Under the pieces are notes generated by a model. It saw only the letters and a list, made by a program, of their open reading frames with translations, was not told the origin of the DNA and made no database searches. Shown piece after piece: positions 14,445-34,897 of a DNA stretch of 64,000 nucleotides (its first letter is position 1; each line of letters starts with the position of its first letter). Location of the stretch: contig CAWBEI010000002.1 of assembly GCA_963787835.1 (NCBI GenBank), forward strand, positions 480,001-544,000. The letters are read 5' to 3'. Made by a program: the position numbers and the translations under genes. This DNA is from Ignavibacteriota bacterium. GTDB lineage: Bacteria; Bacteroidota; Ignavibacteria; Palsa-1295.

Positions 14445-14478
14445 GACTGCCCGCCGTGGATAACCACGGTGGGCAGTC
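14445..14478 (-). terminator. hairpin downstream of giant surface protein copy A
   Basis: GACTGCCCGCCGTGG-ATAA-CCACGGTGGGCAGTC inverted repeat; identical copy at 20403-20436. Confidence 0.6.
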
Positions 14479-17500: not shown

Positions 17501-20150
17501 TCCCGGATGAATACACGAAAAAGTTGTGCTCGTTGTAGATACGAACCGCCGAGCACGAGTCGTTCGCGAACATCCCGTTCCCGTGGATCACCAGATCCTT
17601 CAGCGTGATGTTGCTTGCACCGTATTCGATACCGAAGACCGCACCCGCCTTCGTCTCGTTGCTGACGATCGTCAAGCCGCGCTTCAAGGGCTCTGCCGTC
17701 ACCTTGTCCGGGGACGGAACCGTCGACGGGTTATAGCCCTCGAAGTTCATATAACCAGGGAAGTGGTCGCCCATGTAAAAACAGAATGGCTGTGAGCCGC
17801 TGAACGTGATCGTCGGATTTTGGCCCGGATATGGGATCCATGTTACCGTCGAACTCGCCGAAAGGCCGTTGATCTGGCCAAGGTCCACCGCGCCATACGG
17901 AGAGGCCACATCGGTGTTCCCGTTCTCCGTGTAGGACGCATCCGTCAGGATCATCCGTACGTTCGCTCCGATACCGCGGAACCGCATCGTGTCCACCGCC
18001 TGATGGATCGTCTGGAACTGGCGCCCTACGCCCACATAGTAATCGCCCTTCAAACGGTCGATGATCGAAAACTGCGTGCACGACGTGTCGTTCGTCTGGT
18101 TCTCGTCGCTGCCCGCGCTGCTGCTGAAGTCTGCGATCGCGCACAGCGTGTAGCATCCCGGCGGGATCGTCGCGATCGTGTGGTATGCACCCGCGTTCGC
18201 TGTCGTTGGAAACTTGAACAGCACCTGACCCTGGTCGATGTTCAAGGCATCTTCTACCGTATCCGACTGGAATGCCAGCAACCCATCCGAACAACGGCGG
18301 ATCTGGCAACGGATCTTGAAGCTGAACAGGTCCGATACACCCACCGACTGGAACAGCGCCGATGGCTGCCACGTCGTCAAATACGGCTTCTCTTCACCCG
18401 GCTGAGGGTTGAACACTCCCACCGAGGCCGCATCGTAAAGTGGAAGGATCGGCGTCGGAGATTTCGTCGTGTCGTCCGCACGCAGCTGATCGTTACCCAT
18501 GATCGCAATACCGAAGACCGTATCCACGCCCAGCGTCACCGGAGTCCACGTCGGGCTTGAAGGGAACGCCGTATCGTAATACGCGCCTCTACCCGGACCC
18601 TGACCGCTCGAGGAATAATCCGTCACCCCATCCGAGTTGCCACCCATTGGGCCGGAAGGCCAGTATGGGATCACGACCGTGTCACGGAAGACCACTTTGC
18701 CCGTCGCGTCGTGTACCGTTGCCGTCACCGGTACATTGTATTGCGTGTCCGTTCCAAGGTTACGGAAACGGATCGAGATCGGCGTCGCAATATCCACCTG
18801 AGTACGGGAACCCGCCGGAGGATTGATCACCGAGACCCCCTTGATATCGTTCGGTGGAGCGCACGTCCACTCATCCGTCGATTGGTTGTCCGATGGATCC
18901 TGATCTGCCGTCGGCTGCAGATTGAACACCGTCATCGTGTCCTCGTAAATACCGTAGCCCGTGCTCTGCGCTTCGCCGAACTGCGCCGGTTCGCCAGGTG
19001 CGAACGCCGGGAACGTGATCGTCGTCTGGCTGAACCCTGCCGGGATCTGCGAGCTGTTCAGCGTGATCGTCTGATTATACACCTGGCCTACGCCATACTC
19101 CGAGATCGTGAAGTTCACCTGGCACGACGTCGAGACCTGGGAACCCGAATTAGCAAGGATCGCCGTTGGGGTGAAATACGTATTGATCGCCTGTGGAGTT
19201 TCGCTGGCAGGATTGGTGATCGTACCGGCCGTCAGATTATATGGCCAAGCAATCGCGATGCGGTAACTGACCTGCGGGAGCAACGGCTCCGTCGCGTTGT
19301 CTTCCGCATATCCGTAATAATCGACGATCGGCTGATTCGATGGGTTGCCGCCGTTGCCGTTCCAGCCAATGGTCAGGAAGTCGCCGCCGCCCGATCCCTT
19401 AATGCCGGTCAGGCCGCTGTAAGCTTCAATAAGCCAGCCGCCATAGGAGTAATAGTAACCCCAGCTCGAATTAAATGTACCACTCTGTGGACCATAATTG
19501 AATTGGAAACTCGATATACCGCTTTCATAGACAACAGCCTGAAAATCTCCATTGAGGCCGGCCGAAGAGCCGTATTCATATGCATAAAGGCCGAGGGTCT
19601 GCACGACGAGCTCGCGGTTCGGGGCAGAGCCTAAAACGGCATAAGAGCAATTCGGAGCCGGACCATACGTGAGGAAGCCCTCGAACGGTGCTAGCTTATA
19701 GTTTGGATAATAGGACTCATAAGGAGCATAGTCATATTCACTCTCCAAAAAATCATACTCATAATCCTCGTACACATAGCCATACTCACTCAGATAAAAA
19801 AAATCGGCATCATAATCGTACGCATAGTTGGCGGTCCAAGTGGGGCTAAAGATGACAGAACCGTATGAATTAACTTCAAAATTGCCGGTGGTGGCGATCT
19901 GTTGGTTTTCAAACCGGAACGCGAACGGCACCGTATAACTCGGAGACATCTGATAATAATATCCCAGACCCGAGACCGCCGTTCCGCTGATCGCACTCCA
20001 GTTCGGGCCTGAACCCAAACCCTGAGCATCAGGCGTCGTGATCATGTGCACAAGATAGCTTCTCATAGAGTACGTTTGCGCACGCACGACCCCGGTGGAA
20101 ATCAAGCCGAACGCAACGAGCATGATTAGGAAAGCGTAGAGTTTTTTCAT
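14541..20150 (-). CDS. giant T9SS-secreted surface protein, copy A (Tyr-rich variable N-domain, Ig/CARDB-like repeats, beta-helix-like region, FN3-like domain, CTD)
   Basis: signal peptide MKKLYAF..VRAQ; D..ND-ending Ig-like units; LGQSYPNP..GSYLY CTD. Confidence 0.85.
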   Translation of the reverse strand: MKKLYAFLIMLVAFGLISTGVVRAQTYSMRSYLVHMITTPDAQGLGSGPNWSAISGTAVSGLGYYYQMSPSYTVPFAFRFENQQIATTGNFEVNSYGSVIFSPTWTANYAYDYDADFFYLSEYGYVYEDYEYDFLESEYDYAPYESYYPNYKLAPFEGFLTYGPAPNCSYAVLGSAPNRELVVQTLGLYAYEYGSSAGLNGDFQAVVYESGISSFQFNYGPQSGTFNSSWGYYYSYGGWLIEAYSGLTGIKGSGGGDFLTIGWNGNGGNPSNQPIVDYYGYAEDNATEPLLPQVSYRIAIAWPYNLTAGTITNPASETPQAINTYFTPTAILANSGSQVSTSCQVNFTISEYGVGQVYNQTITLNSSQIPAGFSQTTITFPAFAPGEPAQFGEAQSTGYGIYEDTMTVFNLQPTADQDPSDNQSTDEWTCAPPNDIKGVSVINPPAGSRTQVDIATPISIRFRNLGTDTQYNVPVTATVHDATGKVVFRDTVVIPYWPSGPMGGNSDGVTDYSSSGQGPGRGAYYDTAFPSSPTWTPVTLGVDTVFGIAIMGNDQLRADDTTKSPTPILPLYDAASVGVFNPQPGEEKPYLTTWQPSALFQSVGVSDLFSFKIRCQIRRCSDGLLAFQSDTVEDALNIDQGQVLFKFPTTANAGAYHTIATIPPGCYTLCAIADFSSSAGSDENQTNDTSCTQFSIIDRLKGDYYVGVGRQFQTIHQAVDTMRFRGIGANVRMILTDASYTENGNTDVASPYGAVDLGQINGLSASSTVTWIPYPGQNPTITFSGSQPFCFYMGDHFPGYMNFEGYNPSTVPSPDKVTAEPLKRGLTIVSNETKAGAVFGIEYGASNITLKDLVIHGNGMFANDSCSAVRIYNEHNFFVYSSGIHDTVATSNITVNNCELGNAKYGIYDHGYHDAYDPVKGAYTTWRNYNDVITRNTVGTSSNPLSYAGIQFNSETGIVISHNEISNVNANVVPQGGGATWNVYGIVQPNMNTYIGPPSNPQWAGDTGNVTGAWIDANRIRIMTSAAGNTHGIALQQSSWQYTSTGLTNVKSTLPAVTQNRLTNNMILDLRTSAGKVFPILMTTISSTSGTVPYSTDKDSVFNNSISTNNATSNITIKYAKHAFIWNNIFQNTGTGPYTNYNLEVPRPYASSISSDYNVFDLRGTNVFDSVTEYDARYGTVFQSLYFRRLNDWRTYVGQDSHSLSGDPLFGTPAMGVDSLHMPPALTYIESPASNNGAWLGTSSEAHDFDGDVRSQNNPSPDIGADEWDGFQFTNDLAVLEISQPGGFSQTSDTSLVTTESPLWITGVVKNLSSVGVYSQKVTATVQRSVNGVWTTVYTGTSAPLTWQVGESKSVAFQGPALTASNSTGVFRVTVSVPNDQNDANNSQTKTFTILLKQNAVLLSYNGAASDGRQNRDSVIAALNRLGVPFDTIDRNAPKGLPNTTIIDYTPWWTIVWSSGDPGVAPVAGQSTGQGGPTLQETDEITRYLGAGQSYAKKSLVIAGQHIAYYNGYVQSNNPVTDTQWMQSTMHTQYVANYPTSSSYIGRIVGQQPAYWTFADSLSIPVNPNGSDCEECSTDLTSSLTPNVIMPSLTTPAVGPKVNGYAYTYSNYSYSNPNNGAGVSYYDPLVNTVFYAFDWANPHQTSPSTAAQDALTSGTTRTLAAAFAFFRSHNGTILPIDNVSASIQRVSGNAATITWDVVGLPNVVRYDVEQQNQNSWTVLHPVTAVADQTDYASSITGLDPSQSYTYRIAAVDETGAETYSNTVELGPDASQLGFTLGQSYPNPSAGVTEVSFTLPEASQVTLRVMDVTGKVVNSEVTNQSFEAGTQNVKLDLTSLPSGSYLYEMTATGADGRSATLSSKLTIEKQ

Positions 20151-20263: not shown

Positions 20264-20291
20264 CGACACGCCAGAACCACCGAAAGTTACA
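20264..20291 (-). promoter_or_regulatory. ECF-type promoter TGTAACTTT-N12-CGTGTCG upstream of copy A
   Basis: same motif and spacing at 26269-26296 and 34245-34272. Confidence 0.7.
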
Positions 20292-20402
20292 TCCCGTTCT
20301 CAATTTTTTTGAAAATTTCTTAGAGAATCCTAAAACTAAGGCTTTGTCATATCTCCTTTGGCAACCCACAATTTTATATTGTATTTACTGCGTTTAAATT
20401 GG

Positions 20403-20436
20403 GACTGCCCGCCGTGGATAACCACGGTGGGCAGTC
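20403..20436 (-). terminator. hairpin downstream of giant surface protein copy B
   Basis: identical to 14445-14478. Confidence 0.6.
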
Positions 20437-20498
20437 GCTTGATTTCGGTTGGGATGTTTTTTGCTTCCCGTATGTCCGTCTTACCGAGCTTTCCCGTC

Positions 20499-23400
20499 TT
20501 ACTGTTTTTCGATGGTGAGCTTGCTCGAGAGCGTGGCGCTGCGGCCGTCGGCTCCGGTGGCGGTCATCTCATAGAGATAGCTGCCGCTCGGTAGCGAGGT
20601 CAGGTCGAGCTTCACGTTCTGGGTGCCCGCCTCGAACGACTGGTTCGTCACCTCGCTGTTGACCACCTTGCCCGTCACGTCCATCACCCGCAGCGTTACC
20701 TGCGAGGCTTCCGGAAGCGTGAACGATACCTCCGTCACACCGGCCGAGGGATTCGGATAGCTCTGGCCCAGTGTAAAGCCAAGCTGGCTTGCATCCGGAC
20801 CCAGTTCCACCGTATTCGAGTACGTCTCCGCACCCGTCTCATCGACCGCCGCAATGCGGTACGTGTACGACTGCGAAGGATCCAGACCCGTGATCGAGGA
20901 GGCATAGTCCGTCTGATCCGCGACCGCCGTCACCGGATGCAGCACCGTCCAGCTGTTCTGGTTCTGCTGCTCCACATCGTAGCGTACCACGTTCGGCAAG
21001 CCTACCACATCCCACGTGATCGTCGCGGCATTACCGCTGACCCGCTGAATGCTCGCACTCACATTGTCGATCGGTAGGATCGTACCATTGTGACTGCGGA
21101 AGAAGGCAAAGGCTGCTGCAAGCGTTCGTGTCGTACCGCTCGTCAATGCATCCTGTGCCGCCGTGCTCGGAGACGTCTGGTGCGGGTTCGCCCAGTCAAA
21201 GGCATAGAACACCGTGTTCACCAGGGGATCGTAATACGATACACCCGCTCCATTGTTCGGATTGCTGTACGAGTAGTTCGAGTACGTGTACGCATACCCG
21301 TTGACCTTCGGACCCACCGCAGGCGTCGTCAGGGATGGCATGATCACGTTCGGTGTCAGGCTCGAGGTCAGATCCGTCGAGCATTCCTCGCAGTCACTCC
21401 CGTTCGGATTGACCGGGATCGAAAGGCTGTCCGCAAACGTCCAGTACGCCGGCTGCTGGCCCACGATCCGGCCAATATACGAGGAACTCGTCGGGTAGTT
21501 CGCCACATACTGTGTGTGCATCGTCGATTGCATCCATTGCGTATCCGTCACCGGATTGTTCGACTGCACATACCCATTGTAGTAGGCAATGTGCTGGCCC
21601 GCGATCACAAGGCTCTTCTTCGCATAGCTCTGCCCTGCGCCCAGATACCGCGTGATCTCATCCGTCTCCTGCAGCGTCGGACCGCCCTGACCCGTCGACT
21701 GACCGGCAACCGGGGCAACGCCCGGATCGCCGCTCGACCACACGATCGTCCACCACGGCGTGTAATCGATGATCGTCGTGTTCGGAAGGCCCTTCGGAGC
21801 GTTACGGTCGATCGTGTCGAACGGTACCCCTAATCGGTTCAACGCCGCGATCACCGAATCACGGTTCTGACGGCCATCCGAGGCCGCACCATTATAGGAA
21901 AGCAATACCGCATTCTGCTTCAACAGGATCGTAAACGTCTTCGTCTGCGAGTTGTTCGCGTCGTTCTGGTCGTTCGGGACGCTCACCGTTACCCGGAACA
22001 CCCCCGTGCTGTTCGACGCCGTCAACGCCGGACCCTGGAACGCGACGCTCTTCGACTCGCCCACCTGCCACGTCAACGGGGCAGACGTGCCCGTATACAC
22101 CGTCGTCCATACACCATTGACCGAACGCTGCACCGTCGCCGTGACCTTCTGGCTATAGACGCCTACGCTCGATAGGTTCTTCACCACGCCCGTGATCCAT
22201 AACGGACTCTCCGTCGTCACTAAGGACGTGTCGCTCGTCTGCGAGAACCCGCCCGGCTGTGAGATCTCTAAGACCGCAAGATCGTTCGTGAACTGGAACC
22301 CGTCCCATTCATCCGCCCCGATGTCCGGGCTCGGATTGTTCTGCGAACGAACGTCTCCGTCGAAATCATGAGCCTCCGACGACGTACCAAGCCACGCGCC
22401 GTTGTTCGAGGCCGGACTTTCGATGTACGTCAAGGCCGGTGGCATGTGCAACGAATCCACTCCCATCGCTGGCGTACCGAACAACGGATCGCCCGATAAC
22501 GAGTGGCTGTCCTGACCCACATACGTACGCCAGTCGTTCAAACGGCGGAAGTACAGGCTCTGGAATACCGTCCCATACCGTGCGTCGTACTCCGTCACCG
22601 AGTCGAAGACGTTCGTGCCACGCAAATCGAATACGTTATAGTCCGAACTGATCGAACTTGCATACGGACGAGGTACCTCTAAGTTGTAGTTCGTGTACGG
22701 ACCGGTGCCCGTGTTCTGGAAAATGTTGTTCCAGATGAACGCGTGCTTCGCGTATTTGATCGTGATGTTCGATGTCGCGTTGTTCGTCGAGATCGAGTTG
22801 TTGAACACCGAATCCTTGTCCGTCGAATACGGAACCGTGCCCGACGTCGAAGAGATCGTCGTCATCAGGATCGGGAACACCTTCCCCGCGCTCGTACGAA
22901 GGTCTAAGATCATGTTGTTCGTCAATCGGTTCTGCGTTACCGCCGGTAACGTCGATTTCACATTCGTCAGACCCGTGCTCGTGTACTGCCACGACGACTG
23001 CTGCAGCGCGATCCCATGCGTGTTGCCCGCTGCCGATGTCATGATACGGATCCGGTTCGCATCGATCCAGGCACCCGTCACGTTACCCGTGTCACCCGCC
23101 CACTGAGGGTTCGAAGGCGGGCCGATGTACGTGTTCATGTTCGGCTGTACAATGCCATACACATTCCACGTCGCTCCGCCGCCCTGCGGTACTACGTTCG
23201 CGTTCACGTTCGAGATCTCGTTGTGTGAGATCACGATCCCGGTCTCGCTGTTGAACTGGATGCCCGCGTACGATAATGGGTTCGACGACGTACCTACCGT
23301 GTTCCGCGTGATCACGTCATTGTAGTTGCGCCACGTCGTGTACGCACCCTTCACCGGATCGTACGCATCGTGGTACCCGTGATCGTAGATCCCATACTTC

Positions 23401-26159
23401 GCATTGCCAAGCTCGCAATTATTAACCACGAGATTGTTCATCGCTACGGTATCGCGAATACCCGAGCCATAGACATAGAAGTTGTGCTCGTTGTAGATAC
23501 GGACCGCCGAGCACGAGTCGTTCGCGAACATCCCGTTCCCGTGGATCACCAGATCCTTCAGCGTGATGTTGCTCGCACCGTATTCGATACCGAAGACCGC
23601 ACCCGCCTTCGTCTCGTTGCTGACGATCGTCAAGCCGCGCTTCAAGGGCTCGGCCGTCACCTTGTCCGGGGACGGAACCGTCGACGGGTTATAGCCCTCG
23701 AAGTTCATATAACCAGGGAAGTGGTCGCCCATGTAAAAACAGAATGGCTGTGAGCCGCTGAACGTGATCGTCGGATTTTGGCCCGGATATGGGATCCACG
23801 TCACCGTCGAACTCGCCGAAAGGCCGTTGATCTGGCCAAGGTCCACCGCGCCATACGGAGAGGCCACATCGGTGTTCCCGTTCTCCGTGTAGGACGCATC
23901 CGTCAGGATCATCCGTACGTTCGCTCCGATACCGCGGAACCGCATCGTGTCCACCGCCTGATGGATCGTCTGGAACTGGCGCCCTACGCCCACATAGTAA
24001 TCGCCCTTCAAACGGTCAATGATCGAAAACTGCGTGCACGACGTGTCGTTCGTCTGGTTCTCGTCGCTGCCCGCGCTGCTGCTGAAGTCTGCGATCGCGC
24101 ACAGCGTGTAGCATCCCGGCGGGATCGTCGCGATCGTGTGGTATGCACCCGCGTTCGCTGTCGTTGGAAACTTGAACAGCACCTGACCCTGGTCGATGTT
24201 CAAGGCATCTTCTACCGTATCCGACTGGAATGCCAGCAACCCATCCGAACAACGGCGGATCTGGCAACGGATCTTGAAGCTGAACAGGTCCGATACACCC
24301 ACCGACTGGAACAGCGCCGATGGCTGCCACGTCGTCAAATACGGCTTCTCTTCACCCGGCTGAGGGTTGAACACTCCCACCGAGGCCGCATCGTAAAGTG
24401 GAAGGATCGGCGTCGGAGATTTCGTCGTGTCGTCCGCACGCAGCTGATCGTTACCCATGATCGCAATACCGAAGACCGTATCCACGCCCAGCGTCACCGG
24501 AGTCCACGTCGGGCTTGAAGGGAACGCCGTATCGTAATACGCGCCTCTGCCCGGACCCTGACCGCTCGAGGAATAATCCGTCACCCCATCCGAGTTGCCA
24601 CCCATTGGGCCGGAAGGCCAGTAAGGGATCACGACCGTGTCACGGAAGACCACTTTGCCCGTCGCGTCGTGTACCGTTGCCGTCACCGGTACATTGTATT
24701 GCGTGTCCGTTCCAAGGTTACGGAAACGGATCGAGATCGGCGTAGCAATATCCACCTGGGTTCGGGAACCCGCCGGAGGATTGATCACCGAGACCCCCTT
24801 GATGTCGTTCGGTGGAGCGCACGTCCACTCATCCGTCGATTGGTTGTCTGCGGGATCCTGATCTGCCGTCGGCTGTAGATTGAACACCGTCATCGTGTCC
24901 TCGTAGATCCCATAGCCCGTGCTTTGGGCTTCGCCGAACTGCGCCGCCTGACCTGGCGCAAACTGCGGGAACGTGATCGTCGAATTGCTGAACGCCGCCG
25001 GGATCTGCGAGCTGTTCAGGGTGATCGTCTGATTATATACCTGGCCTACGCCATACTCCGAGATCGTGAAGTTCACCTGGCACGACGTTGAGACCTGCGA
25101 ACCCGAATTTGTAAGGATCGCCGTTGGGGTGAAGTTCGTATTGATCGCCTGTGGAGTTTCGCTGGCAGGATTGGTGATCGTACCAGCCGTCAGATCGTAC
25201 GGCCAAGCGATGAACACACGATAGCTCGATTGCGGGAGCAGAGGCTCCGTCGCGTTGTCTTCCGCTGCATAGCCATAGGCAAAACTGGTGTAGCCACTAT
25301 TAGAATAATTATTGCAGTATTGAACCAACGGTTGATTCGAAGGGCTGCCGCCGTTGCCGTTCCAGCCGATCGTCAGGTAATTACCGCCTGTGGATTTGAC
25401 GGCAGTGTAGCCCGAGTATGATTCGATCAGCCAGCCGCCATAGGAGTAATAATACCCCCAGCTTGAGTTCCACGTCCCGGTCATCGGACCATAATTGAAC
25501 TGGAAGTTCGAGATCCCTGACTCATAGACAACCGTCTGCCAGCTTCCAAAACATTGTGATAAGCCATAATAATAAGAGGGTACAGCATCGGCCTCTACGA
25601 CAAGCTCACGATTCGGAGCCGAGCCGAGAACCGTATAGAGCACGTTATAGCCAGAGCTGGGGCCATCTGTCAAAAACCCTTCGAAGGGGGCCAGCCTGTA
25701 ATTGCCGTAATAGGAGTACCCGTAGTTGTAATCCTCTTCGTTCTCATAGAGGCAGTATGGAATGTAGTCATACACGTACCCATATTCACTTAGAAAAAAC
25801 CAATCGTACCCACCGTAATCGTAGTTGGCAGTGCTGGGCCAGGTGGGGCTGAACACGACCGTGCCATAGTTGTTAAACCGGAACGTGTTTGTCGTCGCGA
25901 TCTGCGTGTTTAAGAACCGGAATGCAAACGGCACCTGATAGGCCGCCGACATTTGTTCGCCATCGTACTGCGATGACAATCCGCCGCTGGTGCCTGTGAC
26001 GGAATGCCAGTTCGAGCCGGAACCTAATCCCTGCGGATCAGGCGTATCGACCTTCCGGACGAAGTAGCTGGTCATCGTGTACGTTTGCGCCTGCGCAACC
26101 TCGGAGGAAATGATTCCGAGCGCGAAAAGCGCGAGAAGAAAAGCGTAGAGTTTTTTCAT
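20499..26159 (-). CDS. giant T9SS-secreted surface protein, copy B
   Basis: paralog of copy A; C-terminal ~1,450 aa nearly identical, N-terminal ~320 aa divergent with indels. Confidence 0.85.
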   Translation of the reverse strand: MKKLYAFLLALFALGIISSEVAQAQTYTMTSYFVRKVDTPDPQGLGSGSNWHSVTGTSGGLSSQYDGEQMSAAYQVPFAFRFLNTQIATTNTFRFNNYGTVVFSPTWPSTANYDYGGYDWFFLSEYGYVYDYIPYCLYENEEDYNYGYSYYGNYRLAPFEGFLTDGPSSGYNVLYTVLGSAPNRELVVEADAVPSYYYGLSQCFGSWQTVVYESGISNFQFNYGPMTGTWNSSWGYYYSYGGWLIESYSGYTAVKSTGGNYLTIGWNGNGGSPSNQPLVQYCNNYSNSGYTSFAYGYAAEDNATEPLLPQSSYRVFIAWPYDLTAGTITNPASETPQAINTNFTPTAILTNSGSQVSTSCQVNFTISEYGVGQVYNQTITLNSSQIPAAFSNSTITFPQFAPGQAAQFGEAQSTGYGIYEDTMTVFNLQPTADQDPADNQSTDEWTCAPPNDIKGVSVINPPAGSRTQVDIATPISIRFRNLGTDTQYNVPVTATVHDATGKVVFRDTVVIPYWPSGPMGGNSDGVTDYSSSGQGPGRGAYYDTAFPSSPTWTPVTLGVDTVFGIAIMGNDQLRADDTTKSPTPILPLYDAASVGVFNPQPGEEKPYLTTWQPSALFQSVGVSDLFSFKIRCQIRRCSDGLLAFQSDTVEDALNIDQGQVLFKFPTTANAGAYHTIATIPPGCYTLCAIADFSSSAGSDENQTNDTSCTQFSIIDRLKGDYYVGVGRQFQTIHQAVDTMRFRGIGANVRMILTDASYTENGNTDVASPYGAVDLGQINGLSASSTVTWIPYPGQNPTITFSGSQPFCFYMGDHFPGYMNFEGYNPSTVPSPDKVTAEPLKRGLTIVSNETKAGAVFGIEYGASNITLKDLVIHGNGMFANDSCSAVRIYNEHNFYVYGSGIRDTVAMNNLVVNNCELGNAKYGIYDHGYHDAYDPVKGAYTTWRNYNDVITRNTVGTSSNPLSYAGIQFNSETGIVISHNEISNVNANVVPQGGGATWNVYGIVQPNMNTYIGPPSNPQWAGDTGNVTGAWIDANRIRIMTSAAGNTHGIALQQSSWQYTSTGLTNVKSTLPAVTQNRLTNNMILDLRTSAGKVFPILMTTISSTSGTVPYSTDKDSVFNNSISTNNATSNITIKYAKHAFIWNNIFQNTGTGPYTNYNLEVPRPYASSISSDYNVFDLRGTNVFDSVTEYDARYGTVFQSLYFRRLNDWRTYVGQDSHSLSGDPLFGTPAMGVDSLHMPPALTYIESPASNNGAWLGTSSEAHDFDGDVRSQNNPSPDIGADEWDGFQFTNDLAVLEISQPGGFSQTSDTSLVTTESPLWITGVVKNLSSVGVYSQKVTATVQRSVNGVWTTVYTGTSAPLTWQVGESKSVAFQGPALTASNSTGVFRVTVSVPNDQNDANNSQTKTFTILLKQNAVLLSYNGAASDGRQNRDSVIAALNRLGVPFDTIDRNAPKGLPNTTIIDYTPWWTIVWSSGDPGVAPVAGQSTGQGGPTLQETDEITRYLGAGQSYAKKSLVIAGQHIAYYNGYVQSNNPVTDTQWMQSTMHTQYVANYPTSSSYIGRIVGQQPAYWTFADSLSIPVNPNGSDCEECSTDLTSSLTPNVIMPSLTTPAVGPKVNGYAYTYSNYSYSNPNNGAGVSYYDPLVNTVFYAFDWANPHQTSPSTAAQDALTSGTTRTLAAAFAFFRSHNGTILPIDNVSASIQRVSGNAATITWDVVGLPNVVRYDVEQQNQNSWTVLHPVTAVADQTDYASSITGLDPSQSYTYRIAAVDETGAETYSNTVELGPDASQLGFTLGQSYPNPSAGVTEVSFTLPEASQVTLRVMDVTGKVVNSEVTNQSFEAGTQNVKLDLTSLPSGSYLYEMTATGADGRSATLSSKLTIEKQ

Positions 26160-26268
26160 AGACTTCTAATGAATGGAAAATAAGTGACTACAATTCTGTT
26201 GCCCGAAGGATGGCCGGTTATTCAAAACAATACCAAAAGAACCGGAGGGTTTCCCCCAGGTATTTACT

Positions 26269-26296
26269 CGACACGCCAAAACCACCGAAAGTTACA
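26269..26296 (-). promoter_or_regulatory. ECF-type promoter TGTAACTTT-N12-CGTGTCG upstream of copy B
   Basis: same motif as upstream of copy A and of the ECF sigma gene. Confidence 0.7.
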
Positions 26297-26366
26297 TCCA
26301 GTTCACGATTTTTTATGTATTCTTAAGGAGTGCCTGGGATAAGCAGGGAAATTCTTTCTAAAGATC

Positions 26367-29300
26367 CTACCGGTCAATAATAAAAGGAGTGGCAACCCGC
26401 CATCCAAGCGAGCTCACCTCAAGCATATACCGGCCAGAACTCAAAGCGTCCATCGGTATATTAATGGTATAAGTGCCACGGGTAAAGCTCTGAGCCAGAA
26501 TGTTTGTGATCAATTTCCCCGTCATATCATAGAGTCCGGCTTCAACGAACCCGTCGTTGCCAAGTTGAAGACCGAAACTGGCGGACTCCGAAGCCGGATC
26601 TGGCGTGACTGGTCCTATCGCGTAGTTGCCACCAGGCACGAATTGCCCATTCAATCCAGTGCAATCCGTCACCACAACGCTTCCACGGGTTACCTCAATA
26701 TTTACTGAAGTATCGGTCGTAAGTTTGAGCCCGATCGCAGAGGATGCTCGCGGGCCGAGCAGCGTCAGCCACGAAATGGCTTCTATAAAACCTGGGTTGC
26801 TGAAATCGATCGTTTCAGAAAAAGCAACGGAATCCTGCAAAACGGAATGCGCAGGGCTTGTAAACCCACTGATAAAAGCAACAACGGATGGATCGTAGGT
26901 AACAGCGACACTTGCCGGATATTGGCCTTTCAGCGATGATGAATCAAGACGGATCGTTGTGACAACAGTATCGCCTGCACGCGCCGCCGCATTAGAAATA
27001 GTGAAATGTGCCCAGAGACTTCCCTCTTTGAACCCTGTTCCACGAAGTGCCAATTTGAATGGCTGACCGATATTCGGATAGAGCGTCGCTGTATCGATCT
27101 CTGTGCCGGAGTCCGATGGACAAAAACGAAACTTCACTTCTGCCGATCCGAAAGATGGAACCAGAATCGGCATTGAAGAAGCAGGTTGAAACGCTGAACT
27201 CTTCCAGGCAATGGAGTCGATCGATACAGAGGGCCCACACGGGTTCCCGATGAGCGAGGAATCTTCGCCGCAATCCGGCACGAGAACGGAATCGAAGTCA
27301 ATACTTTCTGCGGCCAGACCGCTATCAATTCCTTTTCCGGATAGAATAATATCAATAGTAGAATCGCAGCCGGCATCACCCAAGATAAGTTGGACAGTGT
27401 CCAACATTTCGACGGTATCCGACGGCTCCGATGGGGTAAACGAAAATCGTAATGAGGAAATCTGGCCAGGAAGCATCCGGCTCACAGTATCCAGGATGGC
27501 GAACCGTCCTCCTGAATTGAGATTAGAAATCGAAACGGCAAGCGTGTCAAGCCCGAGATTGACCAAGCTATCGCCGGCCATCACACTATCGCTGATGCAG
27601 ACAAAATGAAATGGAACGACCGAATCGAAATGAACCTGTGCGCCCACCACTCGATACGAAAGGATCGTAGAAAGAATAGTATCGGAAAGCTGATAGAGGA
27701 TCGTATCGGTAAATCGCCCAGTGGAATCGGGAACCCATGAAATTTGCACAGGATAACGCTCGTTCGGCTGGAGTATCACATCGATGCTATCGTGTTGGGG
27801 AGGCTCTTTACGTTGCAATGTTTGGAGCGTGATGGTGTCATTCCCTAAGTTTGAGATAGTATCGGTAAAGGTGATGGTGTGTCCTAAGCAATTCGGCCCA
27901 AGATCATGTGCTCCAAGCGACGATGCAAGACGACTCACTCCTACACCTGCTAATTCGATCGAATCCTGACGGTCATCGAGCGCTTGCGTTTGTCGAACAT
28001 CGCCCGAATCCGTTGGGCAAAATGTAAGGATCAGCATTCTTTTCTGCGAAGGTGCAATTGCGGTATCAGGCGGATCGAGCCTCATAGAAAAAGGTGGAGT
28101 GTTCCACGAACTACGATCAAGGTAAAGCGTATCCGCTCCGGCGGAAAGAAGAGACACGGTGTCACTCTTGCACTGCCCGATCGGTACATTCCCAAAGTTG
28201 ACATTCGATGGGGAGATCACGAGGGAATCCTGCCTTACAAGTCCTGTTCCAAAGAGGGTCATAACTTTGGTTGAATCGGTTGGATCGTTAGAAAGGAATG
28301 TGATAGCGGCCACATCAGAAGCTGCAGAATCCGGGCAGAATTCTACCTGAAGTGTATCCGACTGGGATGGAGGGATCCGAAGCGCGGTATCGGGAACCAG
28401 TGAAAACCCGGAAGGGCCGGAGATGGAACCTTTGCCAATCGAGAGCGGTGCTTCCCCTTCATTCCGGATGACCAGCGCAAGTGTTTTGCAGCGGCCAACG
28501 CGCACGGTTCCAAAATCCAGTGTATCCTGAACAACAAGGAATGGCGATGCCGAATGGGAAATGATCGCCATGCTGACATCAGACACCAGCCAGCCCGGTT
28601 CATAGGTGAAGTGCATTGGATCGGATGATGGCTGGTTTACTTCAACAAACGCGACCACATAGAGCAAGGAGTCATGTAAAAGTGGTAACCATTTTGCCCA
28701 ATTCCCGGCCGGAGCTCGAACGGTGTCAACCCACTCCCAATCCGTGTGTTGCGTTCTATAGAATATCCTAATGGTATCGAGCGTATTTGTGAGATCCTGA
28801 GCGGTTCCCGTTACAAGCACAGAACCGTTCGAATTCACAATGGTCGGCGTGGGCACGACAGCGATGCCCTCAGTCCAGACCGGCGATAGTTGTTGAGCCG
28901 GAGTCATGTTCGAAGCACCATCTATACGTACGCGCCCAAGCCCACCAAGCCCACCAGCAAACCCAGATGAATCTATGCCCGGTTGACCTGCATTTCCACC
29001 ATCGACATTAATACTTGTAGAAGAACCACGAATGCCTTTTGGACTTGCCAGATAGATCGCACCACCTGATCCGCCGCCGCCGCCCGCAGCAATTTCTATG
29101 CCCGAAGTGCCTGAATCTCCTCGCGCGCTGAACGTTGAAGAAATTGCGACTATCGAATCGAAAGAAACCAGTTCGATCGCACCACCACCACCACCGCCCG
29201 AACCACCTAACGTACCATCGCCAAGATCGACCGAATTTCCCGCACCGCCGCCGGAACCTCCCGCAAGCGGCACGAGAAATCTTCCACCATTTACTTGACC

Positions 29301-30386
29301 GCCATTCGCCCCGTTCCCAAATTGCTGATCAAAACCACCAATGCCCGCAGTACCAAATCCCCCACCTCCGCCGCCGTATTCAATGAACGGATTAACATCC
29401 TCTCCTCCGCCGGAACCGCCACCAAAACCGCCAGATGACGATGGCGATGAACCCAAACTTGCCACACCGCTCATTCCATAGGGCGCACCGGTACCACCAC
29501 CACCACCCTGATCATCCGGATTACTTTGCCCTCCCACGACACCGGTCGCAGCGCCTCCTCCGGATGCGCCAAGCGTATCGAACCCCTCAGAAGCGGAACC
29601 GGAATTCCCAAGTGAATCGCTCGGGCAACTTCCTCCGCCAGTGAAACCTATTCCGCCGGCACCGCCCCAACCATGTCCACCCCCACCGCCACCGGGGCCC
29701 CCGTTGATACCTTCGGCATCGACGGAGACCGTCGAATTCGAAAGGCGAACCGGTCCTTTGGAAAGAAGCACAACCGGAAGGAGTCTTGGGTTGCTCGGGA
29801 ACGTATCAGGGTTAATTGTTGAAAAAAAGATATGTGCGTTCGTAACGATGAGCGAATCAACCAATAAGGTATTGCTTCCCGAGAGCTGGCCAAATCCATC
29901 ACCGATGGTGGTATCCTGTGTGATGGGGCCTAAGTGTTGCAGCGAATCAATATAAAAATTTACCGTGTCGGACTGCCCCAATAGCGGGCTAAATACAAAA
30001 AATGGCACTGACCCAAACGAGGCGCCGGGTACAATAAAGAGGGGGATCTGAAGCACCCTCCCATTCCAGGTAACGATGGTTGGTCCGACGATCACACGAT
30101 CGGTGTCCGCAGCATTTAATAGAACAAAGCGTACCGAGGAATCGAGTGCATCATATCCAAACGGACGGAAGTCGCTCCCGCGCGCAAGAAGTTCCACAAC
30201 TACATTCATTCCCGGCGCGGCACGGTCCGGACGAATCGTTACTATATGACCAACCTGAGCCTGTGCGGGAAACGCGAAAGACAGCGCGAGAATCAATAAC
30301 AACAAATAACCACTAACGAATGATGGATGAAGGAATTTTTCCCCCCATTCACCATTCGCCATTCGTAATTCGTAATTCCTTTTCAT
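26367..30386 (-). CDS. large secreted protein with Gly-rich region, several ASH/Ig-like (choice-of-anchor D-like) domains and T9SS CTD
   Basis: GGSGGGGGGAI repeats; DFGxV..C..N.G...L.I..F.P..L.G.G units; TPDPAS..SGRYML CTD; ATGA overlap with the upstream stop. Confidence 0.8.
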   Translation of the reverse strand: MKRNYELRMANGEWGEKFLHPSFVSGYLLLLILALSFAFPAQAQVGHIVTIRPDRAAPGMNVVVELLARGSDFRPFGYDALDSSVRFVLLNAADTDRVIVGPTIVTWNGRVLQIPLFIVPGASFGSVPFFVFSPLLGQSDTVNFYIDSLQHLGPITQDTTIGDGFGQLSGSNTLLVDSLIVTNAHIFFSTINPDTFPSNPRLLPVVLLSKGPVRLSNSTVSVDAEGINGGPGGGGGGHGWGGAGGIGFTGGGSCPSDSLGNSGSASEGFDTLGASGGGAATGVVGGQSNPDDQGGGGGTGAPYGMSGVASLGSSPSSSGGFGGGSGGGEDVNPFIEYGGGGGGFGTAGIGGFDQQFGNGANGGQVNGGRFLVPLAGGSGGGAGNSVDLGDGTLGGSGGGGGGAIELVSFDSIVAISSTFSARGDSGTSGIEIAAGGGGGSGGAIYLASPKGIRGSSTSINVDGGNAGQPGIDSSGFAGGLGGLGRVRIDGASNMTPAQQLSPVWTEGIAVVPTPTIVNSNGSVLVTGTAQDLTNTLDTIRIFYRTQHTDWEWVDTVRAPAGNWAKWLPLLHDSLLYVVAFVEVNQPSSDPMHFTYEPGWLVSDVSMAIISHSASPFLVVQDTLDFGTVRVGRCKTLALVIRNEGEAPLSIGKGSISGPSGFSLVPDTALRIPPSQSDTLQVEFCPDSAASDVAAITFLSNDPTDSTKVMTLFGTGLVRQDSLVISPSNVNFGNVPIGQCKSDTVSLLSAGADTLYLDRSSWNTPPFSMRLDPPDTAIAPSQKRMLILTFCPTDSGDVRQTQALDDRQDSIELAGVGVSRLASSLGAHDLGPNCLGHTITFTDTISNLGNDTITLQTLQRKEPPQHDSIDVILQPNERYPVQISWVPDSTGRFTDTILYQLSDTILSTILSYRVVGAQVHFDSVVPFHFVCISDSVMAGDSLVNLGLDTLAVSISNLNSGGRFAILDTVSRMLPGQISSLRFSFTPSEPSDTVEMLDTVQLILGDAGCDSTIDIILSGKGIDSGLAAESIDFDSVLVPDCGEDSSLIGNPCGPSVSIDSIAWKSSAFQPASSMPILVPSFGSAEVKFRFCPSDSGTEIDTATLYPNIGQPFKLALRGTGFKEGSLWAHFTISNAAARAGDTVVTTIRLDSSSLKGQYPASVAVTYDPSVVAFISGFTSPAHSVLQDSVAFSETIDFSNPGFIEAISWLTLLGPRASSAIGLKLTTDTSVNIEVTRGSVVVTDCTGLNGQFVPGGNYAIGPVTPDPASESASFGLQLGNDGFVEAGLYDMTGKLITNILAQSFTRGTYTINIPMDALSSGRYMLEVSSLGWRVATPFIIDR

Positions 30387-32571
30387 TGGCCTCGCTCGAT
30401 GGTTATGTTAACGGTTCGAGAGAAGAAACGTCCCTCAGGAAGGTTGTTGTCGTACGGAAGATCTCGAGAACCACGCCCCTGACTATGAATCTCGATGGCT
30501 GTGGGTTCGACCCCTTCCGTACGAAGCATACCTTCGAGGCGAGATCGCACATTATCCGCCCGCGTCTCACTTAGTTCGTCGTTATGTGCGGGATCTCCCA
30601 TTTCATCCGTGTATCCTTGAATGAGGACACGCTTTACAGGCACTTTGGGTGTCATATCCGCTGCACTTCGAATCGAACGCTCGTTTCCAATGCCAAGCTG
30701 GGATTCGTCGAAGCCAAATAGAATAAGGCTAAAACGTTCGATTCGTTCCGGCCGGTCGCTCGCAACGCGGATGATACTCAGCGGGATGCTTGAATGCGCA
30801 TGAGCATGATCGCCAAGCGAGTCTGACACATCATAATCAATGTCGAGTGAATCTCGAAGCTTGTTCAACGTCTCTTCCGTCGGTGCCCATTCTTTTTCCT
30901 CGGCACGGTTCATGGAATCATTTCCAAAACTTTGAAGCACGATGCCCTGTGCACTGATCGTGGCGCTGGAACGGTCAATTGGTGATTGGGTCGTTACGGT
31001 GGGAAGCAGCTTGATTCGGTCCGGAGTAGCCAGATGCTCGATGTTCGTCACTGTAACGGGCGCCGTGATACGAAACGCCGTCGAATCGCTTCCATCCACG
31101 CGGAATTCTACCCGGCGATCCTCTTCCCGCCCATGTTCTGTTCCCGAAGGACTCGGCTTCGCTGGTAATAGCATCGCTTCAACTTTCAACCGCGAGGGAT
31201 CTATCTTCCAAATTTTGACAAGATAATTCTTTACCGTCTCCGCCCGTTTTCTTGCGAGCGCGAGTAATGCCGCATCGGAGCGATCTGCAATGCTATCGCG
31301 GTCGTCGGTATTATCCGTACTGCCGATGAGCGTGATACGAGTCTTCGGGAATTTTCGCATCCGGTCACCAAGAATATTCAATGTTTCCCGGTAAAGATCC
31401 ATCAGCTTAACGTCATGCCGTTCCGAGGAACCCTGAAATTCCCGCGCTGCCTCTTCCGGCGTGGCATACGTTACATATCGCGAGGGGAAATTTACAGACC
31501 CGGCATCGAAGAAAATATAATTAAGGATCGGGTCGGCGTTACGGGTACGGATCTCCTCGACCGTCATTTGCACCACCGGCGAGGTATCGCCACTCGATGA
31601 GATAGCAATTGCCCGAATCGAAGCACGTAGCTTTGGAACTTCCTCTGCTTGCGCTTTAGACAGTAGTGGCACGACGACCGGAACTTCACTTTTTACAAAA
31701 ACGGGTACCCGCTCCATCCTTGGCGTGAGATCGAACAGTAATGCGAACGTTGCATTTAATTCTATCTCTCGCCAATAACTTGCATCCCGCCCAATCGGAA
31801 CAGCGATGTTCCGCCACCGGCTTGACCACCGAATGGCATTGTTACTCCAAAGCCCGGCTCGGCCCACAGCTTCTTCGAAAGCGGCGCATCATAGTTCATG
31901 CCAAGTGAGAGTGCGGGAACCAGTGCAAATTTTTTCGGAAAATTTCCGGAACCGGTGGTCGTATCCCGTGTTCCGTCGTTGAGTTCATTCCCAGGCTCAA
32001 CCACATGGAGTGATGTCTGATACGATTGCAAGAAAAGCATCCCTACATTTGCTCCGGCAATGGCATGCCACCGTTTTGCGAACTCATAATAAAAACCGCC
32101 ACCAATTCCAGCTTCACCGATCGTTGCAAGCAGTTCATGGCGGATGCTGAACGGCGTAAGCGTGTGATTGACCGCGTCATAGCTCAGATCGCTTTCGGTC
32201 CAGTTGAATTCCGGATGGTGATACTGCAGGAACAAACTCGGCTGAAAACTCCAAGGATCATTATCACCCCAGAGTGGCATATCGGCAAGGAATCGAAATC
32301 CATAATCATTGCCGGTTCCCATCGAGTATTCATCACAACCGATCAAAGCTATTGGCGCAGGGATCGTCGCTTCATAATAATCCCCCCAACCATAATTGAT
32401 CTGGATTCCTGCTCGGAGCGGCTTATGCTCGATCAGGAAAGAACTTTCGATCAGCGTATCCTTCATCACAAGGGAATCTCGCCGGGCACTGCTTGGAGCT
32501 TGCGCCCGCACGCCGGCAGAGGCAAGGAGAAATATGCTCACATATAGATACAGGAGATTTCTTCGCCTCAT
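30383..32571 (-). CDS. OmpA-family protein with N-terminal beta-barrel-like region; split by an apparent -1 frameshift near 31790
   Basis: two OmpA-C-like domains (GSTD..LARKRAETV..RRVEF; GYTD..LSETRADNV..RTV); adding one G at GGCGGG fuses 31762-32571 with 30383-31867. Confidence 0.75.
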
Positions 32572-32752
32572 TCGCACTAATAGAAATTTCAGCCATGCAG
32601 GTAGCACTTCCCTTTAACGGGTCAGAACCATGATAATTTCCCGTGCCAGAAAATTAGGAAGCTCGCTCCGACCTAAGGAAAGTATTTCCTGCGATCCAAG
32701 CGAGCTTCGGGATGAGATGTACTACAACTATTTTTCTTGACCCAGTGAACGG

Positions 32753-33427
32753 TTAGTGCCCTGGACTGATTTTCGGCGGCTCAAGACTTACTGGCCCTCC
32801 ACCGGCTGCACCACTAACTGGTTCTGAATCTCTGGTTTGAACCGCATTCTGTTGGTGGTTCATTGCATGGGCCGATCGAGAGTGAACTACAGGTTTATTC
32901 TCCGCCGACTTCATTTCATTGCTGATCGGAGCAGAAGAAACATTCGGAGCCACATTCGTCGATGGCAATTCTTTCACAGACGGAGAAACCGGCTGGGCCA
33001 TACGAGTAACTTGCTGAACCTGAGGTACGACGGGATTAACGACCGCGCGTACTCCATATCCCACAAGCGCCGCAACCGAGAGGCTGGCCACAGTAACGAG
33101 CGTACTCAGCTTCGTGGCAAATAGCGCCTTGATAACGCTGCCCGAAGATGCCGCCTGAACCGTACCCGCTTTGGTCGCGCTTAGTCCCGAACCGCTTAGA
33201 CCGGCGCCGAGGCCGAGCGTCGCAAAGACTGCGCCGCGAAGGTTACGCGGAGGGTTCAGAACTGCTTCATCGTGATGAAGAACTTTTTTCAGCACGAGTT
33301 CCGAGCGAAAGGACTTTCTGAGCGCCTCGCTGGAGGCGAGCGCGATCAGGAATTCCTGCTCATGTTCGGCAGAGAACTCGTTATCGATGTATGAACTGAT
33401 TCGATCGTCGTGTGTCATAAAATTCAT
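32753..33427 (-). CDS. putative membrane anti-sigma factor
   Basis: ISSYIDNEF anti-sigma-like N-terminus, one TM segment, directly downstream of an ECF sigma gene. Confidence 0.7.
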   Translation of the reverse strand: MNFMTHDDRISSYIDNEFSAEHEQEFLIALASSEALRKSFRSELVLKKVLHHDEAVLNPPRNLRGAVFATLGLGAGLSGSGLSATKAGTVQAASSGSVIKALFATKLSTLVTVASLSVAALVGYGVRAVVNPVVPQVQQVTRMAQPVSPSVKELPSTNVAPNVSSAPISNEMKSAENKPVVHSRSAHAMNHQQNAVQTRDSEPVSGAAGGGPVSLEPPKISPGH

Positions 33428-33495
33428 TCGATTCCATTAATCCTGAAAATCAAGCCTGAACATCCGCTTGAATCGGCGTACTCCAGGTTCTGGCT

Positions 33496-34143
33496 CTACT
33501 CCGTTTTCCGGAGTTCCAGCCAGGCTGCGATCATTTTTCTCAAACGCTCGCGTGCGCGCCACGCCCTTGTTTTTGCGGTCACAGCAGGAGCTCCGATGAT
33601 CTCGGATAGCTCATCGTACGAATACCCGAAGTACTCATGCAAAATGAACGCCTCTCGCTGTGCTGCCGGAAGCCTAAGTAACGCTCGTTCGAGCATATCG
33701 CGCAGGTCCGAATCTTCCAGCCCATCGCCGCGCACCGCAAGTTCCGTCTCGGGCGTATCGTCGATCGAGATGTTCGGCAGCAGCTTTCGGTCGCGGATGG
33801 CGTTCAGCGAAAGATTTCGTGCCACCGTAAATAGCAGTCCCGAAAATTTCAGGACAGTCTTTCGCTCGCCGCGGAGTCGGTACATCCGTGTCCAGACATC
33901 CTGAAAGACATCCTCCGCATCGCTCCTCGATCCGACGAAACGCACTACATATAAGTAGAGCGGACGTTCGAATGCATCGTAGAGCGCCCGGAAAGCCTCG
34001 TCGTTCCCATCCAGAAAGCTGTTAAAGGCTTCTGTGTCGGCATCGGTGGAGGGGGGCACTGTGCCAGGATCAAATTCCGAGACGCCAGTCGATAACTCGG
34101 CTGGAAAAACATCATAAATGCTCTCGTTTCGATCTAATGGCAT
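33496..34143 (-). CDS. ECF RNA polymerase sigma factor
   Basis: region 2 DAEDVFQDVW..LFTVARN; region 4 LPAAQREAF..YSYDELS. Confidence 0.93.
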   Translation of the reverse strand: MPLDRNESIYDVFPAELSTGVSEFDPGTVPPSTDADTEAFNSFLDGNDEAFRALYDAFERPLYLYVVRFVGSRSDAEDVFQDVWTRMYRLRGERKTVLKFSGLLFTVARNLSLNAIRDRKLLPNISIDDTPETELAVRGDGLEDSDLRDMLERALLRLPAAQREAFILHEYFGYSYDELSEIIGAPAVTAKTRAWRARERLRKMIAAWLELRKTE

Positions 34144-34244
34144 AGCTTAGGAACCCCAGAAATCCGACTTTTGCGCCCGGCGCATCCGTTTTGCACCATA
34201 CATCGCCGCCCGATCAACTGGTAATTCTATCCCCCTCCCATGAG

Positions 34245-34272
34245 CGACACGGCGATAGACCCAAAAGTTACA
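34245..34272 (-). promoter_or_regulatory. putative autoregulatory ECF promoter TGTAACTTT-N12-CGTGTCG
   Basis: ~100 bp upstream of the sigma start; AAC/CGT cores typical of ECF promoters. Confidence 0.7.
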
Positions 34273-34650
34273 AGCAGTATCAAAAAAACGCATTTTGTCT
34301 CCAAGAAATGCTTGGCAGTGTGTTTGTTCTTTTGGAGTTCATGAACTGTCGCGTTATAGACTCGGAAACGCCATCTGTTCTTTCGGCAAAGTGCCATCAT
34401 ATTTTTTTTACATATTCATTTAATGAACTTTTTTCTCGCTCGAATCAACTATTCATGAATTCAAGCGTCATTACGTTCGAAATTCCCATCCTTCTTTAAT
34501 CTTTAAGATCCATCCTTTCTTAATCCTGAAAATCCTGTAAATCGTGGTCTAATTTACACTTTCCGAAACAGGTGCCCATAATCCCACTCTCAAACATACA
34601 ACATCCCAAACCCAAAAGCAAGGAAAATCTGAATATAATTGAATTTTTTC

Positions 34651-34795
34651 AGCGCCGTTAGGCGCGGCCCGTTTGTAGAAAATGATCGTTTTATGAAATC
34701 GATCGAGCTCCGTAAGAGCGGGCACAGGTCGCTCCTACGGAGCTTGAAATGCCTAAATGGGATAATTTCTACAAACTGGCCACGCCTACGGCGTT
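34651..34795. repeat. MITE-like palindromic element
   Basis: gcgccgttaggcgc..tttgtagaaa..gagctccgtaagagc / gctcctacggagct..tttctacaaa..acgcctacggcgt nested inverted repeats. Confidence 0.65.
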
Positions 34796-34827
34796 GTCAT
34801 TGTCTGAACCTGGAATTCTGAGATAAT

Positions 34828-34887
34828 GTGTACACCGGGTTTCAACCCGGTGCGGGATTCTTCACCGGGTTGAAACCCGGTGTACAC
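34828..34887. repeat. REP-like doublet (possible terminator of 34898-37366)
   Basis: GTGTACACCGGGTTTCAACCCGGTG...CACCGGGTTGAAACCCGGTGTACAC inverted pair. Confidence 0.75.
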
Positions 34888-34897
34888 TTGAAACAGG

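Follow-up and report, generated by a model that had tools for sequence, protein, structure and literature searches.

What connects a sigma factor gene to the genes for giant surface proteins that lie downstream of it on the same strand? This question is raised by a 64,000-nucleotide (nt) stretch of an Ignavibacteriota bacterium genome (contig CAWBEI010000002.1, positions 480,001 to 544,000; the whole stretch is called the window in the following), in which an earlier note had described one promoter-like signal in front of the gene for a sigma factor of the extracytoplasmic function (ECF) type, here sigma-1, and of two variable surface protein genes, here copy A and copy B. We followed this signal through the window, through the 3.57-Mb source genome (G000) and through the genomes of relatives (other G-numbers) in an uncultured Kapabacteria-like family; the metagenomic runs containing the stretch are from soil and all belong to one study. 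With a probability of roughly three in four, the 28-nt signal (TGTAAC, 15 nt, CGTGTCG) is a promoter read by sigma-1, which would drive the sigma factor's own operon and five further units encoding surface proteins. The genomes directly show six co-oriented intergenic sites, their conservation in the family, their co-variation with the sigma gene's own promoter and the content of the genes that follow them; the regulon predicted on this basis is limited to one sigma factor, one promoter type and six transcription units.

Within the window, TGTAACTTT-N12-CGTGTCG has exactly three matches, all on the minus strand (Table 1), compared to a mean of 0.00 and a maximum of 0 in 100 dinucleotide-preserving shuffles, which confirms the threefold exact recurrence with fixed spacing that had first drawn attention to the locus. 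The earlier note had placed the sites 100-140 bp upstream of the genes, and the measured distances to the ATG codons, between 101 and 113 nt, agree with this; the spacer at the sigma site was likewise correctly described as unrelated to that of the two giant-gene sites. Of the proposed AAC/CGT promoter, the AAC-type -35 box was retained, but the -10 box had to be redefined: the invariant core among the relatives is GTGTC rather than CGT, and the base before it is C or T (T in several genomes). Upstream, copies A and B are ~70% identical to each other, and inside this background the two sites agree at 27 of 28 positions.

The 3.57 Mb of G000 contain 4 exact matches to the pattern, and a fifth site is off by one base. 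A matrix derived from 23 sigma-upstream sites of the other genomes only, when applied to G000, returned six sites with scores of 23.5-33.4 bits, the next best score being 18.4 bits; five genomes simulated with a 3rd-order Markov model held no site of at least 23 bits and reached a maximum of 20.1. Each of the six lies between genes, on the same strand as a gene that starts 38-148 nt downstream; the units behind them are the sigma operon, copy B, copy A and three unlinked loci for secreted proteins. The motif is not the general housekeeping promoter of the lineage, an outcome that the earlier note had allowed for, because the genome holds six sites in all.

Repeats of this kind could also be functionless leftovers of a duplication or of a dispersed repeat. 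Such an origin would suit the upstream regions of copies A and B, which are paralogous, as well as the 754 nt 5' of the sigma gene (34144-34897), a mosaic in which no fewer than four families of short dispersed repeats are represented. However, none of these dispersed repeats covers the motif site, the sequences flanking the unlinked sites are unrelated, conservation upstream of the sigma orthologues in 25 genomes is limited to the two boxes, and the simulated genomes lack sites of comparable score, all of which makes this explanation extremely improbable. As a side observation on the same region, one of its repeat families is a long palindrome near 34830-34890, and a repeat at ~34510-34600 has some 25 copies in the genome, one of them upstream of the unlinked gene encoding the 925-amino acid (aa) target.

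The signal is conserved far beyond the source genome. Each of the 24 other family genomes encodes an orthologue of sigma-1 (51-80% identity), and 24 of the 25 loci, G000 included, have boxes of the form xxxxAC-N16-GTGTC at fixed spacing 5' of the sigma gene, with spacers that differ between them; in the 25th genome, the boxes lie one base closer to each other. The order of sigma gene, anti-sigma gene, gene for a barrel/OmpA protein, gene for a ~1340-aa protein, site and giant gene is the same in G002, G006, G008 and G014. Moreover, an orthologue of the giant protein with a site upstream was identified in eight of eight other genomes examined, from three genera (G002, G003, G004, G006, G008, G014, G015 and G020), including G008, where the site scores 15.9 bits and keeps both boxes. 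The giant protein, which carries a type IX secretion system (T9SS) sorting domain, is the conserved core target of the motif. The other targets vary by genome and belong again to the choice-of-anchor-D and BNR/sortilin families. A scan with the family pattern in five relatives of genus g1 returned 3-6 matches each, compared to 0-4 with a reversed-pattern control, and is thus weakly above background in some of these genomes. The co-oriented 20-kb module proposed in the earlier note is therefore real and syntenic as a set of genes, but the regulon is not confined to it, as three of its loci are unlinked.

Spacing and placement also bear on the question of whether the boxes are a promoter at all. 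They might instead be the binding site of another DNA-binding protein, either a repressor or an activator, and the partly semi-conserved spacer (TTnGGG), which a sigma factor would not strictly need, could be taken as a hint of this. Yet the boxes are non-palindromic and keep a fixed spacing of 15/16 nt, the -35 box belongs to the AAC type, and all sites lie 38-148 nt 5' of a co-oriented gene; the sigma gene, too, is preceded by one in 24 of 25 genomes. Fixed spacing, an AAC-type -35 box, this placement and a site upstream of the sigma gene together constitute the standard signature of autoregulated ECF promoters, and a binding site for another protein is very unlikely by comparison with it.

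Further evidence for a sigma-1 promoter comes from a natural variant of the -35 box. In the genera g2 and g7, the -35 box of the sigma gene's own promoter is TGTCAC in 7 of 7 genomes, and the corresponding pattern TGTCAC-N15-YGTGTC is found 5-11 times per genome in five g2/g7 genomes, compared to 0-1 matches in the reversed-pattern control. In G015 and G020 taken together, 14 of 17 unique sites are followed by an open reading frame (ORF) of at least 290 aa on the same strand that starts within 150 nt, while 3 are doubtful. The 15 downstream proteins scanned in these two genomes include 7 with a T9SS tail, 3 with ASH/choice-of-anchor-D domains, 2 of the BNR/sortilin kind, 2 orthologues of the giant protein (cut by the end of the stretch), 1 beta-propeller, 1 without a match and 1 M24 peptidase, the latter 256 nt from its site and probably a chance match. 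This variant (A to C) changes together with one residue of the sigma factor: residue 203 (window ~33535-33537), where the predicted region-4.2 helix ends. Among genomes whose box is TAAC, 22 of 22 have K here; among those with TGTCAC, 7 of 7 have either T or V. Residue 203 is therefore a candidate specificity residue, confounded by relatedness of the genomes.

Which sigma factor reads the sites is a separate question, since G000 encodes a second ECF sigma factor, sigma-2, with a near-identical core motif in front of its gene. Sigma-2 (243 aa, 27% identical to sigma-1; G000:C6:73123-73854, locus L094:3068-3855) has a site of its own at C6:73067-73094, and TGTAAC-N16-GTGTC is present upstream of sigma-2 orthologues at -46 to -73 in 11 of 12 genomes of the genus, so that the core and spacing of the sigma-1 class recur there. 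The sites could thus be real ECF promoters that are read by sigma-2 or by both sigma factors, in which case the regulon would not be dedicated to sigma-1. Overlapping -10 specificity among ECF sigma factors is familiar from sigma-W, sigma-X and sigma-M of Bacillus subtilis. The two classes of sites can, however, be told apart by the bases around the core: in sigma-2 sites, GTGTC is preceded by T and followed by C or T, and the spacer is not conserved, whereas sigma-1-type targets have C before, G after and a TTnGG spacer. In log-likelihood ratios of the two types, the targets, which comprise all those of G000 and 12 in relatives, score +2.2 to +21.2 and hence as sigma-1 type, in a comparison that is partly circular, while the site of sigma-2 itself scores -7.7. 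A neutral scan for TGTAAC-N16-GTGT detected 7 sites in G000, namely 5 of the sigma-1 class, that of sigma-2 and one other. Furthermore, in G000, G002, G006, G008 and G014 the sigma-1 operon is immediately followed by the giant gene, and the change to TGTCAC in g2 and g7 is common to the promoter of sigma-1 and to the targets. Control by sigma-2, alone or shared, is unlikely in view of these observations, although less so than the two explanations discussed above.

The earlier note had also expected the motif to be enriched in front of genes for T9SS cargo. Applying the cut-off of 27 bits for Por_Secre_tail, a T9SS sorting domain was identified in both copies of the giant protein as well as in the proteins of 963 and 787 aa, and none above this cut-off was found in the 925-aa, 1344-aa and 709-aa targets. 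A T9SS tail is thus encoded by the first gene at 3 of the 5 non-sigma sites, or at 2 of 4 if copies A and B are counted once, which supports the expectation weakly; against it, no fewer than 150 T9SS sorting domains encoded in G000 pass the cut-off, and nearly all of their genes lack the motif upstream. Because only a handful of these cargo genes lie behind the motif, it is not a general promoter of T9SS cargo. All genes downstream of the six sites were annotated, and no T9SS machinery gene was found among them. On its upstream side, the sigma gene is adjoined by a gene for an 822-aa protein with BNR/sortilin and ASH domains (34898-37366). No motif site lies upstream of this gene in G000; in G003, G004, G008 and G015, members of the same protein family are motif-driven. 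It was also considered whether the gene for the 709-aa target of G000 and that for a 699-aa protein of G004 occupy a common genomic slot; this was rejected, as their upstream neighbors are unrelated.

Several of these results weigh against a regulon dedicated to sigma-1 and should be considered together. Copies A and B share ancestry, and, since their upstream regions are paralogous, so do their two sites. The enrichment of T9SS tails among the first genes is modest when set against ~150 tails in ~2850 ORFs (a crude count for G000). Sigma-2 shares the core boxes, and these boxes alone therefore do not tell which of the two sigma factors reads the targets. The scoring of the targets as sigma-1 type is partly circular, because the tools that located them were either matrices derived from sigma-1 or a pattern ending in G. 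Finally, the association of K203 with the -35 box rests on two genera that are possibly sisters, and may go back to a single event.

If the sites are promoters of sigma-1, the system could operate as follows. In the resting state, the membrane anti-sigma factor encoded beside sigma-1 would hold the sigma factor at the inner membrane. A signal from the envelope or the surface would free it, perhaps sensed via the co-transcribed barrel/OmpA protein, in the manner proposed for dual-membrane (Dma-type) anti-sigma factors. Free sigma-1 would then amplify its own operon, which encodes the sigma factor, the anti-sigma factor, the barrel protein and a 1339-aa T9SS protein, and would also activate both giant genes, the gene pair for choice-of-anchor-D T9SS proteins, the BNR/sortilin-like pair and the gene for a fiber-like protein with a Peptidase_S74 chaperone end. 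Transcription would be expected to start a few nt downstream of GTGTCG.

Table 1. Features of the predicted sigma-1 regulon in the source genome, with positions given for the window.
Feature	Position	Strand	Evidence and remarks
Predicted autoregulatory promoter of the sigma operon	34245..34272	-	-35 TGTAAC, -10 GTGTC; 33.4 bits; 101 nt 5' of ATG (34143)
Sigma-1, ECF (group 4) sigma factor, 215 aa	33496..34143	-	Sigma70_r2 44.1 bits, Sigma70_r4_2 51.8 bits
Predicted single-pass anti-sigma factor, 224 aa	32753..33427	-	Alignment of 19 orthologues
Gene for outer-membrane beta-barrel with two OmpA-like domains	30383..32607	-	tblastn, Pfam OmpA, model of orthologue
Secreted protein with choice-of-anchor-D/ASH Ig-like domains, 1339 aa	26367..30386	-	ASH 81 bits, choice_anch_D 74.6 bits
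Predicted sigma-1 promoter of giant gene copy B	26269..26296	-	29.8 bits; 109 nt 5' of ATG (26159)
Giant T9SS surface protein copy B, 1886 aa	20499..26159	-	Por_Secre_tail 43.9 bits, fn3
Hairpin after copy B, terminator-like	20403..20436	-	15-bp stem; upstream of copy A promoter
Predicted sigma-1 promoter of giant gene copy A	20264..20291	-	28.7 bits; 113 nt 5' of ATG (20150)
Giant T9SS surface protein copy A, 1869 aa from ATG	14541..20150	-	Por_Secre_tail 44.1 bits, fn3
Hairpin after copy A, same hairpin	14445..14478	-	End of module
Unlinked target 1, 963-aa choice-of-anchor-D T9SS protein			Followed by 787-aa paralogue
Unlinked target 2, 925-aa BNR/sortilin-like protein			A second such protein (1344 aa) follows
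Unlinked target 3, 709-aa secreted protein, Peptidase_S74 chaperone end			-35 variant TGTGAC

The genes of the module were analyzed individually, and the large genes between 14.5 and 41.6 kb are all encoded on the minus strand. Sigma-1 contains the Pfam domains Sigma70_r2 and Sigma70_r4_2 only and matches the sigma70-ECF model TIGR02937 with 80.3 bits (cut-off 42.9), while all NCBIfam equivalog models remained below their cut-offs. The Casas-Pastor supplement, searched for Ignavibacteriae or OmpA, gave no fitting ECF group for sigma-1. The 224-aa protein is encoded at +1 in every locus examined. Its N-terminal 60 aa are strongly conserved and are followed by one membrane helix and a Pro/Ser-rich linker that varies; a short motif at the C-terminus is conserved as well. 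In a profile search, the protein itself had no family match; its orthologues showed sub-threshold matches to RseA_N in 17 of 19 cases (best E 1.7e-4) and to zf-HC2 in 10 of 19. From these features, we read the 224-aa protein as the predicted anti-sigma factor of sigma-1.

The following gene, for the barrel/OmpA protein, appears in the window as two overlapping ORFs of 281 and 494 aa, with the OmpA domains in the second. It is intact in five relatives (723-754 aa), and a tblastn search with the intact 742-aa orthologue from G014 spans both frames. The split is probably an assembly indel, because two letters at position 31781 are absent from both covering short-read contigs, which come from two runs, one contig per run. 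In the AlphaFold2 (AF2) model of the G014 orthologue, the overall predicted local distance difference test (pLDDT) value is low at 55, with 70-88 in the strands; residues 57-304 form about ten long strands in this model, which also shows two OmpA-like domains. Foldseek matched its N-terminal part to 8-stranded barrels (the OmpA transmembrane domain 1bxw, with E 1.4e-6 and a template modeling score of 0.65 to target, OmpX and Ail), and its C-terminal part to OmpA-like peptidoglycan-binding domains. The gene for the 1339-aa protein overlaps the preceding gene by 4 nt and is predicted to be the last gene of the sigma operon. Its Por_Secre_tail match of 20.1 bits is below the cut-off, and that of the G014 orthologue reaches 27.5 bits. 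Each giant gene has its own motif site and a hairpin past its stop codon, and the module ends after copy A, since hrcA-grpE-dnaJ come next. A search for leader RNAs with Rfam at gathering thresholds over 14000-38000 gave no match.

Copies A and B are tandem paralogues whose proteins are 93% identical, an arrangement that G000 alone shows among the genomes examined. At the DNA level, identity is ~100% over the 3' ~4.7 kb and ~60% over the first ~900 coding nt. The nearly identical 3' ends suggest a recent conversion. As a further observation, the pair amounts to two alternative N-terminal heads of ~300 codons on one body. For the variable N-terminal 440 aa, an AF2 model reached a pLDDT of 66, and Foldseek against the Protein Data Bank (PDB) returned no match at E <= 0.001 for this model; a sequence search of the PDB with the giant protein matched only fn3, near the C-terminus. 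An Atlas search yielded a best score of 0.89 and no named family; one cluster that includes NIDO scored 0.87 and counts as no more than a lead.

Two observations outside the module concern ECF regulation in G000 more generally. First, the gene next to sigma-2 encodes a 426-aa protein (L094:3852-5132). An anti-sigma motif in its N-terminal part is followed by one helix and a long disordered linker rich in Ser, Pro and Gln; the C-terminal part is beta-rich, and its last residue is aromatic. Pfam gave no match, and the protein reads like a fused dual-membrane (Dma-type) anti-sigma factor. Second, a different signal, TGTAACC-N14-GCGTTT, with a strikingly conserved spacer, lies in intergenic regions in front of roughly a dozen secreted-protein genes, several of which encode T9SS tails; examples are located at C2:61792, C2:550627, C2:1301855, C2:1331534, C3:398394, C3:455165, C4:297807, C5:279953, C6:24480 and C7:62351. 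The same signal precedes two further ECF sigma genes (C2:285995 and C3:45076), and the set is probably another ECF regulon for surface proteins.

These elements can be combined into a broader picture, which we put forward tentatively and consider rather unlikely. The surface coat might be split among at least two ECF regulons, the set of six sigma-1 promoters and a second set of about a dozen TGTAACC-N14-GCGTTT promoters. The sensor might consist of two pieces, with the conserved C-terminal peptide of the anti-sigma factor docking on the separate barrel/OmpA protein, and the T9SS cargo protein of the operon could report surface or secretion status back to the sigma factor. As an outcome, the cell could switch whole sets of surface proteins, including the alternative N-terminal heads of the giant protein. 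To our knowledge, gene regulation in Kapabacteria/Ignavibacteriota-like soil bacteria is almost unknown, and none of these bacteria has been studied genetically. The locus offers a cleanly delimited, testable regulon in a poorly known lineage.

How does this predicted system compare to known ones? Sigma-E/RseA of Escherichia coli and sigma-W/RsiW of B. subtilis are the canonical autoregulated pairs of an ECF sigma factor and a single-pass anti-sigma factor. Like them, sigma-1 has only the two domains named sigma-2 and sigma-4, a predicted anti-sigma factor at +1 with weak RseA_N/zf-HC2-like matches, its own predicted promoter, in which the -35 box is AAC and the conserved -10 box is short, and a small predicted regulon. 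Unlike them, it has GTGTC as its -10 core, predicted targets for surface display instead of envelope repair, and a barrel gene in its operon.

With regard to type IX secretion, our searches of the open-access and bioRxiv literature found no paper on an ECF sigma factor dedicated to T9SS cargo, only ones on control of the machinery (SigP, SM6), and nothing fitting on regulation in Kapabacteria. SigP of Porphyromonas gingivalis is reported to be activated through the PorXY two-component system (PMC4800418, PMC7712824), and SigP as well as the 'SM6' ECF-type promoters of Flavobacterium psychrophilum control T9SS machinery (por, gldN, porU) (PMC4800418, PMC7712824, PMC9723704). Common to these systems and the one presented here is an ECF sigma factor tied to type IX secretion in Bacteroidota, and the T9SS-tailed surface protein PorA of P. 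gingivalis, which is reported to feed back on the sigma factor, has a parallel in the T9SS cargo gene within the sigma operon. In contrast to SigP and SM6, none of the six sites precedes a machinery gene, and in contrast to the activation of SigP by PorXY, a membrane anti-sigma factor is predicted at +1.

Also among the closest known systems are the ECF21 kin, namely Das1/Dma1 and Das2/Dma2 of Bacteroides thetaiotaomicron and EcfO/Reo of Bacteroides fragilis. Dma1 is described as an anti-sigma factor that controls the ECF21 sigma factor Das1, whose regulon is reported to comprise NigD-type genes; the N-terminus of Dma1 is cytoplasmic, and a helix in the inner membrane and a disordered linker connect it to an outer-membrane barrel of eight strands (PMC10927553). 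In the ECF21 subgroups s9, s16 and s28, anti-sigma factor and barrel are separate proteins at +1 and +2, and the ECF21 promoter is given as GCAACC / CGTCT (PMC7826278). The locus shares with ECF21 and Dma/Das an ECF sigma gene followed by that of a (here predicted) single-pass anti-sigma factor with a long disordered periplasmic part, the decoupled layout of s9, s16 and s28 with the barrel as a separate +2 protein of the operon, an AAC-type -35 box, and a Bacteroidota-related lineage. It differs in its promoter (TGTAAC / (C/T)GTGTCG), in the two OmpA-like peptidoglycan-binding domains that the barrel protein also bears, in an operon that runs on into a T9SS cargo gene, and, compared to Das1, in a predicted regulon of large secreted surface proteins instead of NigD-type genes. 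The operon layout thus fits the decoupled form of ECF21/Dma-Das while the promoter does not. The class of mechanism is in itself ordinary; what is unusual is the promoter consensus together with the barrel-linked layout of the predicted anti-sigma factor, which would extend the barrel-linked (Dma/ECF21-like) systems by a new promoter type and by a tie to type IX cargo rather than to vesicle formation.

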